A stretch of 64,000 bases of DNA from Escherichia coli. Its GTDB lineage: Bacteria > Pseudomonadota > Gammaproteobacteria > Enterobacterales > Enterobacteriaceae. Below the pieces are notes generated by a model that had not been told where the DNA came from, made no database searches, and saw only the letters and a program-made list of their open reading frames with translations. The stretch lies in NCBI RefSeq assembly GCF_003018255.1, contig NZ_CP027440.1; one strand, given 5' to 3'. Both the position numbers and the translations under genes were made by a program. The number at the start of each line of letters is the position of its first letter. Position 1 is the first letter of the stretch. This document shows, piece by piece, positions 15,454 to 47,846 of the stretch.

Positions 15454-16263
15454 TCATTCCCCGACCAGAATCACTTCAACCCCAGCCTTTCTCAGTCCTT
15501 CCAGACTATCCGCAGGAATGCCTTCATCAACAATGATCATGTCGATACGTTGAGTATCAATGATCTTATGTAAACTAGAACGATTGAACTTACTGGAATC
15601 GGTGACCACGATGATCCGTTCCGCAACTTCGCACATCCGACGGTTTAAACGGGCTTCATCTTCATTATGCGTGCTGACGCCACGCTCCAGATCAATAGCA
15701 TCTACACCAAGAAACAGCATATCGAAGTGGTAATTTTGCAGCGATTGCTCAGCCTGATCGCCATAAAAAGATTGTGACTGACGGCGCAAATGCCCGCCGG
15801 TCATCAGCAGCTCAACACCTTCCGCTTCCAGCAACGCATTAGCCACGTTCATACCGTTGGTCATCGCAATTACGTCGGTGTGCTTGCGCATCAGACGAGC
15901 AATCTCAAAAGTGGTAGTCCCGGAATCGAGGATTACCCGATGACCTGGCTGAATCAACTCAACGGCAGCTTTCGCAACGCTGCGTTTCATTGCGGTGTTC
16001 AGCGCGCTTTTATCTTCCACTGATGGCTCGACTGACGGCGTCGTGCTATCGCAGATCAACGCGCCGCCATAGGCACGCACAGCGATCCCCTGCTTTTCCA
16101 GAAACGCCAGATCGTTGCGGATCGTCACAGTAGATACACCATACAACGCCGATAGATCATTAACTTGCACACTTCCTTGCTGGCGCAGGCGTTGAATGAT
16201 CTGCTCTCGTCGCTCACTGGTGCCTGTCACTCGCTTCTCGCCTGAAGCGTCGGTATTACTCAT
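15454..16263 (-). CDS. agaR: DeoR-family repressor of the aga regulon
   Basis: 269-aa ORF with an N-terminal HTH ([35 protein letters not shown]) and a DeoR C-terminal sugar-phosphate domain. Confidence 0.92.
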
Positions 16264-16511
16264 AGTAAGTCCTTTCGTAAAACTTTCGTTTCATTTCGTT
16301 TTGCCTATTAACGCCTTTCTATTAAGCAAATGCAAGCCCACCTTACCCATTGGCGCAAGCTACTCTCGTTTCAGTGGCTTTCATTATGTTTCTTTTGTGA
16401 ATCAGATCAGAAAACTATTATCTTTCGTTTTATTTTTATCTCACCATGACGCAGTATCAACTGAAACAAAACGAAAGATTAATATCGCAGTAATCTGAAC
16501 TGGAGAGGAAA
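16264..16511. promoter_or_regulatory. agaR/kbaZ divergent promoters with AgaR operator repeats
   Basis: Repeated CTTTCGTTT / AAACGAAAG motifs at about 16271..16310, 16422..16436 and 16465..16478. Confidence 0.7.
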
Positions 16512-17792
16512 GTGAAACATCTGACAGAAATGGTGAGACAGCACAAAGCGGGCAAAACAAATGGGATTTATGCCGTTTGTTCCGCACATCCGCTGGTGCT
16601 GGAAGCTGCAATCCGCTACGCCAGTGCAAACCAAACGCCGTTACTGATTGAAGCAACCTCCAATCAGGTGGACCAGTTCGGCGGTTATACCGGAATGACA
16701 CCCGCCGATTTTCGCGGCTTTGTTTGTCAGCTAGCCGACTCGTTGAATTTCCCGCAGGATGCGCTGATTCTGGGTGGCGACCATCTGGGGCCAAACCGCT
16801 GGCAAAACCTGCCTGCCGCTCAGGCAATGGCCAATGCCGATGATTTGATTAAAAGCTACGTGGCGGCAGGATTCAAAAAAATTCACCTTGATTGCAGCAT
16901 GTCCTGTCAGGACGATCCGATTCCCTTAACTGATGATATCGTGGCTGAACGCGCCGCCCGTCTGGCGAAAGTGGCGGAAGAAACCTGCCGTGAACATTTT
17001 GGCGAGGCCGATCTGGTGTATGTCATTGGCACCGAAGTTCCGGTGCCTGGCGGCGCGCATGAAACCTTAAGCGAGCTGGCGGTCACCACACCGGATGCCG
17101 CCCGCGCCACACTGGAAGCCCATCGCCACGCCTTTGAAAAGCAGGGCCTGAATGCCATCTGGCCACGCATTATTGCCCTGGTGGTTCAACCCGGCGTCGA
17201 ATTCGATCACACCAACGTTATTGATTATCAGCCCGCCAAAGCGACCGCCTTAAGCCAGATGGTCGAAAACTACGAAACGCTGATTTTCGAAGCGCACTCT
17301 ACCGATTACCAAACACCGCAATCGCTGCGCCAGCTGGTGATTGACCACTTTGCCATTCTGAAAGTTGGCCCGGCGCTGACCTTTGCCCTGCGTGAAGCTC
17401 TGTTCTCTCTGGCGGCGATTGAAGAAGAACTGGTACCAGCAAAAGCCTGTTCTGGTCTGCGTCAGGTGCTGGAAAACGTGATGCTCGACCGCCCGGAATA
17501 CTGGCAAAGCCACTACCACGGTGACGGCAACGCGCGTCGTCTGGCGCGTGGTTACAGCTACTCGGACCGCGTGCGCTATTACTGGCCAGACAGCCAGATT
17601 GATGACGCTTTCGCTCATCTGGTTCGTAATCTGGCGGATTCACCAATTCCGCTGCCGCTGATCAGCCAGTATCTGCCGCTGCAGTACGTGAAAGTTCGCT
17701 CCGGCGAGCTGCAGCCAACGCTACGGGAACTCATTATCAACCATATTCAGGACATCCTGGCGCAGTACCACACAGCCTGTGAAGGCCAATAA
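16512..17792 (+). CDS. kbaZ: tagatose-bisphosphate aldolase non-catalytic subunit
   Basis: 426-aa [26 protein letters not shown]; GTG start at 16512 preceded by GGAGAGG. Confidence 0.92.
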
Positions 17793-18298: not shown

Positions 18299-19078
18299 AT
18301 GGAAATCAGTCTGTTGCAGGCATTCGCGTTGGGCATTATCGCCTTTATCGCTGGCCTGGATATGTTTAACGGCCTAACCCATATGCACCGCCCGGTGGTC
18401 CTCGGCCCGTTGGTCGGGCTGGTACTTGGCGATCTGCATACCGGTATTTTAACCGGCGGTACGCTGGAACTGGTGTGGATGGGGCTGGCCCCGCTGGCGG
18501 GCGCACAGCCGCCTAACGTGATTATCGGTACTATCGTCGGCACGGCGTTTGCCATTACTACTGGCGTGAAACCCGATGTTGCAGTCGGTGTCGCCGTACC
18601 TTTCGCTGTCGCAGTACAGATGGGGATTACCTTCCTGTTCTCGGTGATGTCTGGCGTAATGTCCCGCTGTGACCGGATGGCAGAGAACGCCGATACACGC
18701 GGCATTGAACGCGTGAACTATCTGGCACTGCTGGCACTCGGCACTTTCTATTTTCTCTGCGCTTTCCTGCCTATCTACTTCGGCGCGGAACATGCAAAAA
18801 CCATCATTGATGTCCTACCGCAACGATTAATCGACGGCCTCGGCGTCGCGGGCGGCATCATGCCAGCAATCGGTTTTGCCGTGCTGCTGAAAATCATGAT
18901 GAAAAACGTCTACATCCCCTACTTCATCCTGGGCTTTGTTGCCGCAGCCTGGCTCAAGTTACCGGTGCTGGCTATTGCTGCCGCCGCGCTGGCGATGGCG
19001 CTGATCGACCTGCTGCGTAAATCTCCTGAACCGACTCAACCTGCGGCACAGAAAGAGGAATTTGAAGATGGCATCTAA
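18299..19078 (+). CDS. agaW: PTS N-acetylgalactosamine-specific EIIC (full length)
   Basis: 259-aa membrane ORF, uninterrupted; mannose-family IIC; overlaps agaE by 17 nt. Confidence 0.85.
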   Translation: MEISLLQAFALGIIAFIAGLDMFNGLTHMHRPVVLGPLVGLVLGDLHTGILTGGTLELVWMGLAPLAGAQPPNVIIGTIVGTAFAITTGVKPDVAVGVAVPFAVAVQMGITFLFSVMSGVMSRCDRMAENADTRGIERVNYLALLALGTFYFLCAFLPIYFGAEHAKTIIDVLPQRLIDGLGVAGGIMPAIGFAVLLKIMMKNVYIPYFILGFVAAAWLKLPVLAIAAAALAMALIDLLRKSPEPTQPAAQKEEFEDGI

Positions 19079-19946
19079 TCAAACCACCCTGCCGAACGTC
19101 AGTGAAAACGAAGAAACACTGCTGACAGGCGTCAATGAAAACGTGTATGAAGATCAGAGCATTGGCGCAGAGCTGACGAAAAAAGATATCAACCGCGTCG
19201 CCTGGCGTTCCATGCTGTTACAAGCGTCTTTTAACTACGAACGTATGCAGGCTTCTGGCTGGTTGTACGGTCTGCTGCCTGCTCTGAAAAAGATCCACAC
19301 TAATAAACGCGACCTGGCGCGCGCCATGAAGGGGCATATGGGTTTCTTCAATACCCATCCGTTTCTGGTGACGTTTGTTATCGGCATTATCCTTGCGATG
19401 GAGCGTTCTAAGCAGGACGTTAACAGTATTCAGAGCACCAAAATTGCCGTCGGTGCGCCGCTCGGCGGGATTGGCGATGCGATGTTCTGGCTAACGCTAC
19501 TGCCGATTTGTGGCGGGATAGGCGCAAGCCTCGCGCTACAAGGCTCTATTCTTGGCGCAGTCGTCTTTATTGTGCTGTTCAACGTGGTACACCTGGGGCT
19601 GCGTTTTGGTCTGGCGCATTATGCTTACCGCATGGGCGTGGCGGCGATTCCACTCATTAAAGCGAATACCAAAAAAGTCGGCCATGCTGCGTCAATCGTT
19701 GGGATGACGGTAATCGGCGCGCTGGTGGCAACCTATGTTCGTTTAAGCACCACGCTGGAAATCACCGCTGGCGACGCAGTGGTTAAGTTACAGGCTGATG
19801 TTATCGACAAACTGATGCCAGCCTTCTTACCGCTGGTCTACACCCTGACCATGTTCTGGCTGGTACGCCGCGGCTGGAGTCCGCTGCGCCTGATTGCAGT
19901 GACCGTGGTTCTCGGCATCGTCGGTAAATTCTGCCATTTCCTTTAA
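19062..19946 (+). CDS. agaE: PTS N-acetylgalactosamine-specific EIID
   Basis: 294-aa membrane ORF following agaW; mannose-family IID. Confidence 0.85.
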   Translation: MKMASNQTTLPNVSENEETLLTGVNENVYEDQSIGAELTKKDINRVAWRSMLLQASFNYERMQASGWLYGLLPALKKIHTNKRDLARAMKGHMGFFNTHPFLVTFVIGIILAMERSKQDVNSIQSTKIAVGAPLGGIGDAMFWLTLLPICGGIGASLALQGSILGAVVFIVLFNVVHLGLRFGLAHYAYRMGVAAIPLIKANTKKVGHAASIVGMTVIGALVATYVRLSTTLEITAGDAVVKLQADVIDKLMPAFLPLVYTLTMFWLVRRGWSPLRLIAVTVVLGIVGKFCHFL

Positions 19947-19963
19947 ATACAATGAGGTATTAG

Positions 19964-20398
19964 ATGTTAAGTATTATTTTGACAGGGCATGGCGGGTTTG
20001 CCAGTGGCATGGAAAAAGCAATGAAGCAAATCCTCGGCGAGCAATCGCAGTTTATTGCCATCGATTTTCCGGAAACCTCAAGCACCGCGCTGCTTACATC
20101 GCAGCTTGAAGAGGCCATCGCCCAACTGGATTGTGAAGACGGCATTGTTTTTCTGACGGATTTGCTGGGCGGCACGCCGTTTCGCGTAGCTTCAACGCTG
20201 GCGATGCAAAAACTGGGCTGTGAAGTGATTACCGGCACCAATTTGCAACTGCTACTGGAGATGGTGCTGGAGCGCGAAGGGTTAAGCGGTGAAGAGTTTC
20301 GTGTGCAGGCGCTGGAGTGTGGACATCGTGGGCTGACCAGTCTGGTGGACGAGTTAGGCCGCTGCCATGAGGAATGTCCGGTCGAGGAAGGAATATGA
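19964..20398 (+). CDS. agaF: PTS EIIA (mannose family), shared by the Aga and Gam systems
   Basis: 144-aa ORF MLSIILTGHGGFASGMEKA; stop overlaps the agaA start (ATGA). Confidence 0.85.
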   Translation: MLSIILTGHGGFASGMEKAMKQILGEQSQFIAIDFPETSSTALLTSQLEEAIAQLDCEDGIVFLTDLLGGTPFRVASTLAMQKLGCEVITGTNLQLLLEMVLEREGLSGEEFRVQALECGHRGLTSLVDELGRCHEECPVEEGI

Positions 20399-21528
20399 CA
20401 CCCGTTTTGCGCGCCAGAAGGCTGCTGACTGAAGAGGGATGGCTCGATGACCATCAGTTGCGTATTGCTGACGGTGTAATCGCAGAAATCGAACCGATTC
20501 CAGTGGGCGTGACTGAACGCGATGCGGAACTGCTCTGCCCCGCTTACATCGACACCCATGTACACGGTGGTGCGGGCGTTGATGTAATGGATGACGCGCT
20601 GGATGTGCTCGACAAGCTGGCAATGCACAAAGCACGCGAAGGTGTCGGCAGTTGGTTACCGACCACCGTAACCGCGCCGCTTAATACCATTCATGCGGCG
20701 CTGGAACGTATTGCTCAACGTTGCCAACGCGGCGGACCTGGTGCACAAATACTGGGGAGTTATCTCGAAGGACCGTACTTCACGCCGCAGAATAAAGGCG
20801 CGCATCCGCCGGAGCTGTTTCGCGAGCTGGAAATTGCCGAGCTGGATCAATTGATTGCCGTTTCTCAGCACACCTTGCGCGTGGTGGCGCTGGCACCGGA
20901 AAAAGAAGGGGCATTGCAGGCCATCCGCCATCTTAAACAGCAAAACGTAAGGGTGATGCTGGGGCATAGCGCGGCGACCTGGCAACAAACCCGCGCCGCG
21001 TTTGATGCTGGTGCCGACGGCCTGGTGCATTGCTATAACGGGATGACAGGTTTACATCACCGCGAACCGGGAATGGTTGGCGCGGGATTAACGGACAAGC
21101 GCGCCTGGCTGGAACTGATAGCCGATGGTCATCATGTGCATCCGGCGGCGATGTCGCTGTGTTGTTGCTGTGCGAAAGAGAGAATCGTGCTGATCACCGA
21201 CGCGATGCAGGCAGCCGGGATGCCGGATGGTCGCTATACGTTATGTGGCGAAGAAGTGCAGATGCACGGTGGCGTTGTCCGTACCGCGTCCGGTGGGCTG
21301 GCGGGCAGTACGCTGTCTGTTGATGCGGCAGTGCGCAACATGGTTGAGTTGGCGGGTGTAACGCCTGCGGAAGCCATCCATATGGCATCGCTGCATCCGG
21401 CGCGTATGCTGGGTGTTGATGATGTTCTGGGATCGCTTAAACCGGGCAAACGCGCCAGCGTCGTTGCGCTGGATAGCGGGCTGCATGTGCAACAAATCTG
21501 GATTCAGGGTCAATTAGCTTCGTTTTGA
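20395..21528 (+). CDS. agaA: N-acetylgalactosamine-6-phosphate deacetylase (full length)
   Basis: ORF track 20374..21528; ATG at 20395 gives about 377 aa (MTPVLRARRLLTEEGW...); NagA-like amidohydrolase. Confidence 0.85.
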   Translation: MTPVLRARRLLTEEGWLDDHQLRIADGVIAEIEPIPVGVTERDAELLCPAYIDTHVHGGAGVDVMDDALDVLDKLAMHKAREGVGSWLPTTVTAPLNTIHAALERIAQRCQRGGPGAQILGSYLEGPYFTPQNKGAHPPELFRELEIAELDQLIAVSQHTLRVVALAPEKEGALQAIRHLKQQNVRVMLGHSAATWQQTRAAFDAGADGLVHCYNGMTGLHHREPGMVGAGLTDKRAWLELIADGHHVHPAAMSLCCCCAKERIVLITDAMQAAGMPDGRYTLCGEEVQMHGGVVRTASGGLAGSTLSVDAAVRNMVELAGVTPAEAIHMASLHPARMLGVDDVLGSLKPGKRASVVALDSGLHVQQIWIQGQLASF

Positions 21529-21539
21529 TGGTTTGCTCC

Positions 21540-21700
21540 TTTATTGGGCCTTCACTTCCCCCGTAAGGCCTTTCTTTTTCTTTCGTTTTGATCTGTGCAG
21601 CGGTGTCGGATGCGACGCTAATGCGCCTTATCCGACCTACGGTTGGTGACCGTAAGGCCGGATAAAGTATTTACGCCGCATCCAGCAATCCCTTTTACTT
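21540..21700. repeat. REP/BIME-type palindromic repeats
   Basis: Imperfect palindromes gcgccttatccgacctacg and ggccggataaag...gccgcatcc typical of E. coli REP units. Confidence 0.75.
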
Positions 21701-21877
21701 CCCTTGTCTTTTCTTTCAACGATCACAGATTTCGTTTTATTTCCTTTTTCTCCATTGAACTTTCAGTTTCTTTTCTATAGATTTTAACCAACGAAAGAAA
21801 TCACCAAGTGAAATGAAACGAAAGGCAAACGAAAGCGACAACGCCGACGTCAAGTTCATCAGACTAAGGATTGAGTT
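21700..21877 (+). promoter_or_regulatory. agaS promoter with AgaR operator repeats
   Basis: Four clusters of TTTCGTTT / AACGAAAG motifs (about 21729..21745, 21758..21775, 21790..21805, 21810..21836). Confidence 0.7.
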
Positions 21878-23032
21878 ATGCCAGAAAATTACACCCCTGC
21901 TGCTGCCGCAACCGATACATGGACTGAAGAAGAGATCCGCCATCAGCCTCGCGCATGGATCCGTTCACTCACCAACATCGACGCGCTACGTTCCGCGCTC
22001 AATAACTTCCTTGAACCGTTACTGCGCAAAGAGAATCTGCAAATCATCCTGACCGGAGCCGGAACCTCGGCATTTATCGGTGACATCATCGCGCCGTGGC
22101 TCGCCAGTCATACCGGTAAAAACTTCAGCGCCGTACCGACCACCGATCTGGTCACTAATCCGATGGACTACCTGAATCCAGCTCATCCGCTGCTGTTGAT
22201 CTCCTTCGGTCGATCCGGCAACAGCCCGGAAAGCGTCGCTGCCGTGGAACTGGCAAATCAATTTGTACCCGAGTGCTATCACCTGCCGATCACCTGCAAC
22301 GAAGCGGGCGCTCTTTACCAAAACGCGATCAACAGCGACAACGCGTTTGCCCTACTGATGCCCGCAGAAACGCACGACCGCGGCTTTGCGATGACCAGCA
22401 GCATTACCACCATGATGGCCAGTTGCCTCGCGGTTTTCGCACCTGAGACGATCAACAGCCAGAGCTTCCGCGACGTGGCGGATCGTTGCCAGGCGATCCT
22501 GACCTCACTGGGCGATTTCAGCGAAGGTGTGTTTGGTTACGCACCGTGGAAACGGATCGTTTATCTCGGCAGCGGTGGCTTACAGGGCGCAGCACGCGAG
22601 TCGGCGCTGAAAGTGCTGGAACTGACAGCGGGTAAACTGGCGGCCTTCTATGATTCCCCGACCGGATTCCGTCATGGCCCGAAATCGCTGGTCGATAACG
22701 AAACGCTGGTGGTGGTATTTGTCTCCAGCCACCCTTACACCCGTCAGTATGATCTTGATCTGCTGGCAGAACTCCGCCGCGATAACCAGGCAATGCGCGT
22801 AATCGCCATCGCCGCGGAAAGCAATGACGTTATTACTGCCGGTCCACATATCATCCTGCCGCCGTCCCGTCACTTTATCGACGTTGAGCAGGCATTTTGC
22901 TTCCTGATGTACGCCCAGACATTTGCACTGATGCAGTCGCTGCACATGGGTAATACACCGGATACCCCATCAGCCAGTGGCACCGTTAACCGCGTGGTGC
23001 AAGGCGTAATCATTCATCCGTGGCAGGCATAA
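21878..23032 (+). CDS. agaS: galactosamine-6-phosphate deaminase/isomerase (SIS domains)
   Basis: 384-aa ORF MPENYTPAAAATDTWTEEEIRHQPRAW. Confidence 0.92.
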   Translation: MPENYTPAAAATDTWTEEEIRHQPRAWIRSLTNIDALRSALNNFLEPLLRKENLQIILTGAGTSAFIGDIIAPWLASHTGKNFSAVPTTDLVTNPMDYLNPAHPLLLISFGRSGNSPESVAAVELANQFVPECYHLPITCNEAGALYQNAINSDNAFALLMPAETHDRGFAMTSSITTMMASCLAVFAPETINSQSFRDVADRCQAILTSLGDFSEGVFGYAPWKRIVYLGSGGLQGAARESALKVLELTAGKLAAFYDSPTGFRHGPKSLVDNETLVVVFVSSHPYTRQYDLDLLAELRRDNQAMRVIAIAAESNDVITAGPHIILPPSRHFIDVEQAFCFLMYAQTFALMQSLHMGNTPDTPSASGTVNRVVQGVIIHPWQA

Positions 23033-26171: not shown

Positions 26172-26939
26172 ATGGAACGAGGCACCGCGTCTGGCGGTGC
26201 CTCTTTACTTAAGGAATTTCATCCTGTGCAAACCCTTCAACAAGTTGAAAACTATACGGCGTTAAGTGAACGTGCCAGCGAATATTTATTGGCCGTGATC
26301 CGTAGCAAACCGGATGCCGTGATTTGCCTGGCGACCGGAGCCACGCCATTACTGACGTATCATTATCTGGTAGAAAAAATCCACCAGCAGCAGGTTGATG
26401 TCAGCCAGCTCACCTTCGTGAAGCTCGACGAATGGGTGGATCTGCCATTAACGATGCCTGGTACCTGCGAAACTTTCCTGCAACAGCATATCGTGCAGCC
26501 GCTGGGGCTACGTGAAGACCAGCTCATCAGCTTTCGCTCCGAAGAGATAAATGAGACAGAGTGCGAACGGGTAACGAACCTGATTGCGCGCAAAGGCGGT
26601 CTGGATTTATGCGTTCTCGGATTGGGGAAAAACGGTCATCTTGGGCTGAACGAACCGGGAGAAAGCCTGCAACCGGCCTGCCATATCAGTCAACTTGATG
26701 CCAGAACACAGCAACATGAGATGTTAAAAACCGCGGGTCACCCCGTGACTCGTGGGATCACCTTAGGCCTGAAGGATATTCTCAATGCCCGCGAAGTTTT
26801 GTTACTGGTGACTGGCGAAGGAAAGCAGGATGCGACAGAACGTTTTCTCACAGCTAAAGTCTCTACCGCTATCCCGGCTTCATTTTTATGGCTGCATAAC
26901 TATTTCACATGCATGATTGATGAGATGTGTCGTCGTTAA
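26172..26939 (+). CDS. agaI: putative galactosamine-6-phosphate deaminase/isomerase (NagB family)
   Basis: 255-aa ORF starting at the ATG directly after the agaD stop; the annotated K-12 start may lie a few codons away. Confidence 0.85.
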   Translation: MERGTASGGASLLKEFHPVQTLQQVENYTALSERASEYLLAVIRSKPDAVICLATGATPLLTYHYLVEKIHQQQVDVSQLTFVKLDEWVDLPLTMPGTCETFLQQHIVQPLGLREDQLISFRSEEINETECERVTNLIARKGGLDLCVLGLGKNGHLGLNEPGESLQPACHISQLDARTQQHEMLKTAGHPVTRGITLGLKDILNAREVLLLVTGEGKQDATERFLTAKVSTAIPASFLWLHNYFTCMIDEMCRR

Positions 26940-26948
26940 CTCGCCTGC

Positions 26949-26987
26949 TACAGGCGTTGCAACGCTATTCCTGCTGCGACGCCTGTA
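26949..26987. terminator. inverted repeat between convergent agaI and rsmI (probable bidirectional terminator)
   Basis: tacaggcgt ... acgcctgta arms with an internal gcgttgcaacgc palindrome inside a 49-bp spacer. Confidence 0.55.
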
Positions 26988-26988
26988 A

Positions 26989-27852
26989 TCACTCTCCCTG
27001 CTGCTCCAGCGCATACTTATACAGCGCATTTTTCTTCACGCCGTGAATTTCTGCGGCCAGCGCCGCCGCTTTTTTCAGCGGCAGTTCTGCCTGCAACAGC
27101 GCCAGCGTGCGCAGAGCATCGGCGGGTAAGTCTTCTTCCTGTGCTTTATGGCCTTCGACAATCAGCACCATTTCGCCTTTGCGACGGTTTTCATCTTCTT
27201 TGACCCACGCCAGCAGCTCGCCAACGGGCGCGCCGTGAATGGTTTCCCAGGTTTTGGTCAGCTCACGCGCCAGAACCACGTAGCGGGATTCGCCTAATAC
27301 CGCAACGATATCTTCCAGGCTATCTAACAGACGGTGGGTAGATTCATAAAAAATCAGCGTGCGCGGCTCCGCTTCAATAGCTTTTAGCGCATCACGGCGG
27401 CCTTTTGATTTGGCAGGTAAAAAGCCTTCATAACAAAAACGATCGGATGGTAAACCCGCGGCGCTTAACGCAGTGATAGCAGCACACGGCCCTGGTAGCG
27501 GCACCACGCGAATCCCCGCTTCACGACAGGTACGCACCAGATGGTAGCCAGGATCGTTAATTAGCGGCGTTCCGGCATCGGAAACCAGCGCAATGTTTTG
27601 CCCCTCTTGCAGTTTCGCCAGCAGCGTTTCGGCTTTTTGTTGTTCGTTATGGTCGTGCAGCGCAAACAACCGGGCATTAATCCCAAAATGTTGCAGCAAT
27701 AAACCGGTGTGACGCGTATCCTCGGCGGCAATCAGATCAACGGCCTGTAATACCTCTAATGCACGCTGGGTGATATCAGCCAGATTGCCGATTGGCGTCG
27801 GTACAATGTAAAGCTGGCCCTGAGAATTATCCGCCGATTGGTGTTGTTTCAT
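26989..27852 (-). CDS. rsmI: 16S rRNA (cytidine1402-2'-O)-methyltransferase
   Basis: 287-aa [31 protein letters not shown] (tetrapyrrole-methylase fold); divergent from lpoA. Confidence 0.9.
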
Positions 27853-31510: not shown

Positions 31511-31601
31511 TAATGCCTGATGCGACGCTTGCAGCGTCTTATCAGGCCTACAACGATGCAAACCGTAGGTCGGATAAGGCGTTTACGCCGCATCCGACAT
31601 G
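31511..31601. repeat. REP/BIME element
   Basis: gcctgatgcgacgcttgcagcgtcttatcaggcctac ... ggtcggataaggcgtttacgccgcatccgaca. Confidence 0.8.
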
Positions 31602-38982: not shown

Positions 38983-39085
38983 GCGGGAAGCCTTATCCGA
39001 GCTGGCAACGCTGTCCTACGTAGACCTGATAAGCGAAGCGCATCAGGCATTGTGGAGGCAGCAGAAATGTCGGATAAGGCACCGC
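38983..39085. repeat. REP/BIME element
   Basis: gccttatccgagctggc ... tgtcggataaggcaccgc palindromic units between yhbW and mtr. Confidence 0.75.
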
Positions 39086-47694: not shown

Positions 47695-47772
47695 AATAAA
47701 TTCTCCTGACAAAAAAGGGGCTGTTAGCCCCTTTTTAAAATTAATTTCAGGTGGAAGGGCTGTTCACGTTGG

Positions 47773-47846
47773 CCTGATAAGACGCGCCAGCGTCGCATCA
47801 GGCAATCCATGCCGGATGCGGCGTAAACGCCTTATCCCGCATGGAA
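47773..47846. repeat. REP/BIME element
   Basis: ggcctgataagacgcgccagcgtcgcatcaggc ... gccggatgcggcgtaaacgccttatcc. Confidence 0.8.

Follow-up and report, generated by a model that had tools for sequence, protein, structure and literature searches.

The spacer between agaA and agaS in this Escherichia coli strain is very probably an ordinary junction of two AgaR-controlled operons, kbaZ-agaVWEFA and agaS-kbaY-agaBCDI (operon definitions as in PMC10101011), at which a hairpin and a pair of REP units would act on the upstream transcript and an array of operators would act on the downstream promoter. Our analysis showed directly the sequence anatomy of the junction, the enrichment and the conservation of the operator motif, and the confinement of the REP pair to one lineage; AgaR binding and repression at the agaS promoter in K-12 are taken from the literature. 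Read from the end of agaA, the order is a hairpin with a pyrimidine tail, then the REP pair, and then the agaS promoter within an array of AgaR boxes (Table 1).

Table 1. Genes and sequence features at the agaA-agaS junction and at related sites in the 64-kb window. Positions count from the first nucleotide of the window.
Feature	Position	Strand	Remarks
AgaR gene	15454-16263	-	NF040755, E = 3.9e-140
Exact TTTCGTTT in agaR-kbaZ spacer	16284, 16294, 16423, 16469	+, +, +, -	
AgaR boxes, agaR-kbaZ spacer	16280-16303, 16375-16398, 16419-16442, 16457-16480	+, +, +, -	matrix ranks 3-6
KbaZ gene	16512-17792		NCBIfam
AgaA gene (nagA-family deacetylase)	20374-21528		ORF; TIGR00221
agaA stop codon, TGA	21526-21528	+	end of the last gene in the kbaZ-agaVWEFA unit
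Hairpin, GGGCCTT.AC / GT.AAGGCC	21547-21571	+	in minimum-energy and centroid folds
Pyrimidine tract, CTTTCTTTTTCTTTCGTTTT	21567-21590	+	directly 3' of hairpin; 3 mismatches to AgaR consensus
Exact TTTCGTTT in agaA-agaS spacer	21581, 21730, 21816, 21827	+, +, -, -	
REP unit 1, Y-type	21603-21640	-	30/35 to Y; GTAGG end at 21640
REP unit 2, degenerate Y-type	21652-21688	+	29/35 to Y; GTAAGG replaces GTAGG
GATCACA	21721-21727	+	just 5' of first promoter box; 80-100% conserved in 69 sequences
AgaR box abutting the putative -35 hexamer on its 5' side	21726-21749	+	matrix rank 1, 31.9 bits
Putative agaS promoter	21755-21781	+	near-invariant in 69 sequences; spacer 15 nt
Putative -35, TTGAAC	21755-21760		
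CTTTCAGTTTCTTTTC box in promoter spacer	21760-21775	+	2 mismatches to 14-nt core
Putative -10, TATAGA	21776-21781		
AACGAAAGAAA box, extra half-site	21790-21800	-	perfect inverted repeat of 21577-21587
AgaR box 3' of promoter	21804-21827	-	0 mismatches; core 21810-21823; matrix rank 2, 31.3 bits
Extra TTTCGTTT unit adjoining the perfect box	21825-21838 (octamer 21827-21834)	-	Escherichia-specific
agaS ribosome-binding site TAAGGA, with ATG at 21878	21863-21880	+	conserved block
AgaS gene	21878-23032		ORF; TIGR02815
AgaI gene	26172-26939		NCBIfam
REP pair after dolP	31513-31600		Z2 35/37 + Y 32/35
REP sequence after yhbW	39020-39048		one shortened unit + fragments
REP pair in infB-rbfA spacer	47768-47846		Z2 35/37 + Y 29/35

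The window, by which we mean the whole 64-kb stretch of E. coli chromosome that was analyzed, carries an intact aga/gam cluster. Genes were called by combining an ORF map with NCBIfam scans, which also identified DolP, a YhbW-type oxidoreductase, and RbfA. The scans agree with every gene name given in the initial annotation of this sequence (AgaR, KbaZ, AgaA-type deacetylase, AgaS, DolP, YhbW-type, and RbfA). The agaA-agaS spacer itself extends from 21529 to 21877. A 601-nt query over the junction had matches in 5313 of the 5426 complete E. coli genomes, every one of them flanked by agaA, a nagA-family deacetylase gene, on one side and by agaS on the other. The corresponding spacer of K-12 MG1655 has the same architecture and aligns end to end with only scattered substitutions (~96% identity over the 601-nt query), so that published work on K-12 is applicable here.

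Several features of the surrounding genes vary among strains and species. The agaW, agaE, agaF, and agaA genes are intact at 18299-21528 in the window, and agaW and agaA are pseudogene fragments in K-12 MG1655, which has lost sequence from this segment through the known 2.3-kb deletion. At the other end of the cluster, a convergent rsmI (yraL) lies ~50 nt past agaI (26939-26989). In K-12, agaI is followed by the fimbrial genes yraHIJK (at least yraH-yraJ in the stretch compared), which are seemingly absent from the window strain. Escherichia albertii has agaS without an upstream agaA, and its promoter boxes are degraded. In E. coli KFu022, agaS stands directly beside kbaZ, with agaVWEFA and the agaA-agaS spacer deleted.

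The evidence for an operator array begins with the octamer TTTCGTTT, of which the window holds 11 exact copies on both strands, compared with 4.0 expected; none of 100 shuffles reached 11. Eight of the 11 fall in two spacers, agaA-agaS and agaR-kbaZ, with four in each. The degenerate form TTTCRTTT occurs five times in the agaA-agaS spacer (0.20 expected) and five times in the agaR-kbaZ spacer (0.12 expected), and 0 of 1000 shuffles reached 5 in either case. These expectations come from dinucleotide shuffles of each spacer alone and therefore control for local T-richness. AgaR-type repeats before agaS, and the same motif in the agaR-kbaZ spacer, had both been proposed in the initial annotation, which named a lack of enrichment over shuffled sequence as the result that would count against them; that comparison instead found the repeats clearly enriched. 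Both spacers contain the octamer along with consensus boxes. The proposal of an array of at least four repeats before agaS needs one adjustment: all four exact octamers are present in the spacer, but the copy at 21581 lies upstream of the REP pair and outside the promoter array.

Ray and Larson, in 2004 (Mol Microbiol 51:813), reportedly described AgaR operators at the K-12 agaS, kbaZ (agaZ), and agaR promoters. The 24-nt AgaR consensus is said to have been given there as WRMMTTTCRTTTYRTTTYNYTTKK, composed of tandem TTTCR pentamers. Searching the 64 kb with this consensus at up to 3 mismatches, for which 0.17 matches would be expected, returned six, every one of them inside the two aga spacers. 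The matches at 16280-16303 (+) and 21804-21827 (-) are perfect. Perfect 14-nt cores occur in the 64 kb only at 16284, 16289, 16423, 16463(-), 21730, and 21810(-). We also trained a weight matrix solely on 57 distinct promoter-proximal boxes from outside Escherichia and scored it over the ~128,000 positions of the window. Its eight highest scores all fall in the two aga spacers, and the best position elsewhere reaches 8.6 bits. A full-text literature search found neither the consensus string WRMMTTTCRTTTYRTTTYNYTTKK nor the operator sequences. An error in the consensus is unlikely, given two sites that fit it perfectly and a matrix that was derived independently of it. The boxes before agaS thus have the features expected of AgaR operators, in that they match the consensus, lie at an aga promoter of a locus with the repressor gene, and occupy conserved orthologous positions.

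These boxes are arranged around a putative promoter for agaS. The core TTTCGTTTTATTTC of the upstream box (21730-21743) is a perfect match, and together with the core of the downstream box on the opposite strand (21810-21823) it forms an inverted repeat that is 93% complementary, with 80 bp from center to center. The midpoint of this pair, at 21776.5, falls on the putative -10 hexamer. From the sequence, TTGAAC and TATAGA would constitute a weak agaS promoter. A consensus promoter scan of 21400-21950 called no promoter because each hexamer matches the consensus at just 4/6 positions. The AACGAAAGAAA box at 21790-21800 is Escherichia-specific and poorly conserved elsewhere. The GATCACA at 21721-21727 is possibly a CRP half-site. 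We rejected a full CRP site at the agaS promoter; the stretch at 21712-21727 has 3 mismatches to TGTGA-N6-TCACA, and its left half is weak.

To place these elements in a wider context, we fetched 71 agaS loci from other species; 70 loci, all from Enterobacterales, enter the counts given here, and 69 sequences enter the footprint. Most of the 70 loci have one box at about -153 (+) and another at about -76 (-) relative to the agaS ATG, in the same orientation throughout. Both boxes are present in Citrobacter, Enterobacter, Klebsiella, Kluyvera, Salmonella diarizonae, Lelliottia, Cedecea, and others. The footprint resolves into conserved blocks at 21721-21749 (GATCACA and the first box), 21755-21760 (TTGAAC), 21760-21782 (the spacer box running into TATAGA), and 21806-21824 (the core of the second box), followed by the ribosome-binding site.

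The sister array in the agaR-kbaZ spacer has a related layout. An inverted pair of cores before kbaZ, at 16423-16436 and 16463-16476, is 40 bp apart and resembles the pair at agaS. That spacer also has a strong CRP-like site, TGTGAATCAGATCAGA, at 16396-16411 between two AgaR boxes, with 1 mismatch to TGTGA-N6-TCACA; at that level of match, there are only 4 such sites in the 64 kb.

Between the agaA stop codon and the promoter array, the sequence divides into two parts. The first is the hairpin with its pyrimidine tract. In an alignment of 37 distinct sequences from many genera (Escherichia, Citrobacter, Enterobacter, Klebsiella, Raoultella, Kluyvera, Salmonella diarizonae, Lelliottia, and others), nine pairs make up the G+C-rich hairpin, and compensatory double changes are seen at three of them. 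Even in Yersinia, Buttiauxella, and Cedecea, where the sequence of the stem is altered, a hairpin is still present. The stability of the E. coli hairpin is no better than that of shuffled sequence (z = -0.15), and a simple terminator scan of 21400-21950 missed it, its loop being longer than the 3-8 nt that the scan allows. The tract that follows is T-rich but broken by conserved C residues, so the hairpin may be a poor terminator. Most simply, the hairpin and its tail are a candidate intrinsic terminator of the kbaZ-agaVWEFA operon, an assignment that we do not regard as secure. In Kosakonia pseudosacchari, at ~225-183 nt 5' of agaS, five CTTTCG hexamers replace a 15-nt portion of the tract, as if an AgaR-like unit had been amplified.

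The second part is the REP pair. REP units were called from head and tail patterns and from alignment to published K-12 units (PMC2817692, Table 1). The initial annotation had assigned REP/BIME palindromes to the whole of 21540-21700, and this holds for two units within 21603-21688; the segment at 21540-21600 is the hairpin and tract rather than REP. We considered that segment as a degenerate REP and rejected it, with only 15/35 matches to a Y unit and with the hairpin conserved in genera that have no REP there. The two units are extragenic and lie tail to tail in opposite orientation, ~11 nt apart, and their joint fold has an energy of -43 kcal/mol (z = -4.0). They have the general properties of REP elements, being palindromes of ~35 nt that are extragenic, repeated in the genome, and alternating in orientation. 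They do not have the composition of a canonical BIME-1 or BIME-2, since both score best as Y; this is not a Y+Z1 or Y+Z2 cluster and is best described as an atypical REP pair. The end of unit 2 reads GTAAGG in the window and GCAAGG in K-12, compared with GTAGG in unit 1. At a permissive threshold, Rfam returned weak sub-threshold matches to naRNA4, which is derived from a REP cluster; further sub-threshold matches to a plant microRNA family and to suhB were set aside as chance.

The REP pair is an accessory insertion and not part of the operator array, because it is found only in Escherichia and because roughly one in two complete E. coli genomes has a truncated unit 2. Across the 70 loci, REP head and tail patterns were found in no spacer from outside Escherichia. 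Where the pair would lie, Citrobacter, Salmonella, Klebsiella, and Kluyvera have an A+T-rich stretch and Enterobacter has almost nothing. Within Escherichia, there are two deletion alleles of the segment at 21636-21700. The window strain, K-12, O157:H7, and ST131 have the full unit 2; the other allele, found in O145:H28 and several cryptic lineages, has the head half of unit 2 and ~30 nt of other sequence. The divergent strain E69 retains both segments. The truncated allele is present in 2697 of the 5426 complete E. coli genomes. Neither the operators nor the promoter vary between the alleles. REP clusters are a main source of intergenic polymorphism, and the segregating alleles fit that role. 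The K-12 RefSeq annotation has no entries for repeats, not even for the evident REPs after dolP, and therefore cannot tell whether the agaA-agaS pair has been catalogued.

Three further REP sites in the window had been listed in the initial annotation, with differing outcomes. The site after dolP is a clean Z2 + Y pair, as proposed. After yhbW, REP sequence is indeed present, but as a single shortened unit plus fragments. The pair described as following rbfA exists, but it sits between infB and rbfA; with the two genes transcribed from the minus strand, the pair is 5' of rbfA. This Z2-like + Y-like pair is an internal REP and not a 3'-terminal one; infB and rbfA belong to the nusA-infB operon.

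We considered three other accounts of the spacer, of which the most credible concerns the pyrimidine tract. The tract at 21567-21590 may be a true distal AgaR operator overlapping the terminator tail of agaA, a reading to which we give somewhat less than an even chance. The array would then once have spanned the whole spacer, with the REP pair inserted into it in Escherichia, and AgaR bound both at the tract and at the promoter-proximal boxes could form a bridge or a DNA loop, by analogy with other DeoR-family repressors. Speaking for such an operator is the exact 15-mer CTTTCTTTTYCTTTC (21570-21584), which is found upstream of agaS in 47 of the 70 loci and in 13 genera, is retained even in Yersinia and Buttiauxella, where the sequence of the hairpin stem has changed, and has 0 matches in 470 kb of other locus sequence. 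The C positions of the tract are conserved, and a plain U-tract would not need them. The tract also ranks seventh in the window by the weight matrix, at 15.9 bits compared with 8.6 for the best non-aga position; it lies just ~45 nt from the proximal box in Enterobacter, and Kosakonia has an expanded CTTTCG run at the same place. Yet the tract departs from the consensus at 3 positions, where it has pyrimidines in place of purines, and its distance from the proximal box varies (~45, 100, and 159 nt), keeping no constant helical phase. Moreover, the G of its TTTCGTTT is polymorphic in E. coli, being T in ST131 and O145:H28, and a terminator tail by itself accounts for the T-richness. If the tract does prove to be an operator, then one sequence would serve as both terminator tail and repressor site from Escherichia to Yersinia. 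In either case, CTTTCTTTTYCTTTC is conserved more strictly than a terminator tail requires and could interest those who work on the regulon.

We consider it most improbable that the REP pair is instead a working part of AgaR regulation, for example as a bend or a gyrase site that aids the repressor complex. The pair does lie between two AgaR-like sites, and binding of DNA gyrase to REP clusters, and of IHF to some types, is established (PMC2817692, PMC6379681). All loci outside Escherichia lack the pair, however, and retain the same operators and promoter; two deletion alleles segregate in E. coli, with unit 2 halved in 2697 of 5426 genomes; and, both units being Y-type, the pair is without the canonical Y+Z1 or Y+Z2 linkers that carry the IHF site. 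Least probable of all, to a degree that we treat as negligible, is that the TTTC-rich repeats are a by-product of the T-rich composition of promoters and terminators and have no specific protein partner. The plus strand of the spacer is pyrimidine-rich and some of the repeat families are short, but shuffles of the spacer that preserve dinucleotides never attain the observed repeat count, perfect 14-nt cores are confined to two aga spacers in 64 kb, and the position and orientation of the boxes are conserved across genera while their flanks diverge. Together with published AgaR binding data (PMC3668189), these observations leave little to composition, an origin that the shuffles and the conservation across genera refute.

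Returning to the junction of two AgaR-controlled operons, the published genetics agree with the layout. The agaS promoter is induced by GalNAc (PMC3668189; PMC4694137, PMC5018945, PMC10101011) and agaS is expressed constitutively once agaR is deleted (PMC3668189, Table 2). AgaR binds tandem repeats in the aga intergenic regions (PMC5018945), and both its binding and AgaR-dependent repression have been published for K-12 and E. coli C (PMC3668189). In our model, AgaR, a DeoR-family repressor encoded 5.3 kb upstream, would occupy the array over ~60 nt on the upstream side and ~50 nt on the downstream side of the putative start, expected near 21788, with the two perfect inverted cores bracketing the -35 and -10 hexamers and the weaker boxes lying within the promoter spacer and just downstream. 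The promoter would be kept shut by AgaR until an amino sugar is present. On the other side, recent work shows that REPs situated between tandem genes partially terminate transcription and stabilize the mRNA upstream of them (bioRxiv 10.64898/2026.03.23.713779). The hairpin and the REP pair would likewise end or attenuate transcription from agaA, and they may shield the 3' end of the agaA transcript from exonucleases. Since they would act on the upstream transcript, the two operons would be expressed from separate promoters. We infer the promoter hexamers, termination at the hairpin, and the effect of the REP pair.

Compared with known systems, the array is closest to the AgaR operators of K-12, with the same locus, a spacer that is ~96% identical, the same consensus, and the same adjacent repressor gene. 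The window strain differs in its intact agaW-agaA segment and in an extra exact TTTCGTTT at 21827-21834, which reads CTTTCACTT in K-12; nothing substantial differs otherwise. DeoR at the deo operon and GlpR at the glp operons belong to the same family and likewise use several operators over or around the promoter. The AgaR box differs in sequence from theirs, and looping or bridging by AgaR oligomers is suggested by analogy with the family. The REP pair resembles other E. coli REP/BIME elements in being made up of imperfect palindromes of ~35 nt in an extragenic 3' region, in opposite orientation and with a strong fold. It departs from the canonical form in that both units are Y-like and the GTAG end of unit 2 is disrupted, in contrast to the canonical Z2+Y pair after dolP.

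Both the repression of the agaS promoter by AgaR and the occurrence of REP elements in 3' untranslated regions have been published. Taken together, the junction has the textbook layout of a characterized sugar-use locus, and it matters little beyond correct annotation. The two common REP alleles nevertheless offer a natural experiment on the level of upstream mRNA or on read-through into agaS, and the junction as a whole neatly illustrates a repressor array around a weak promoter beside a lineage-specific REP insertion.
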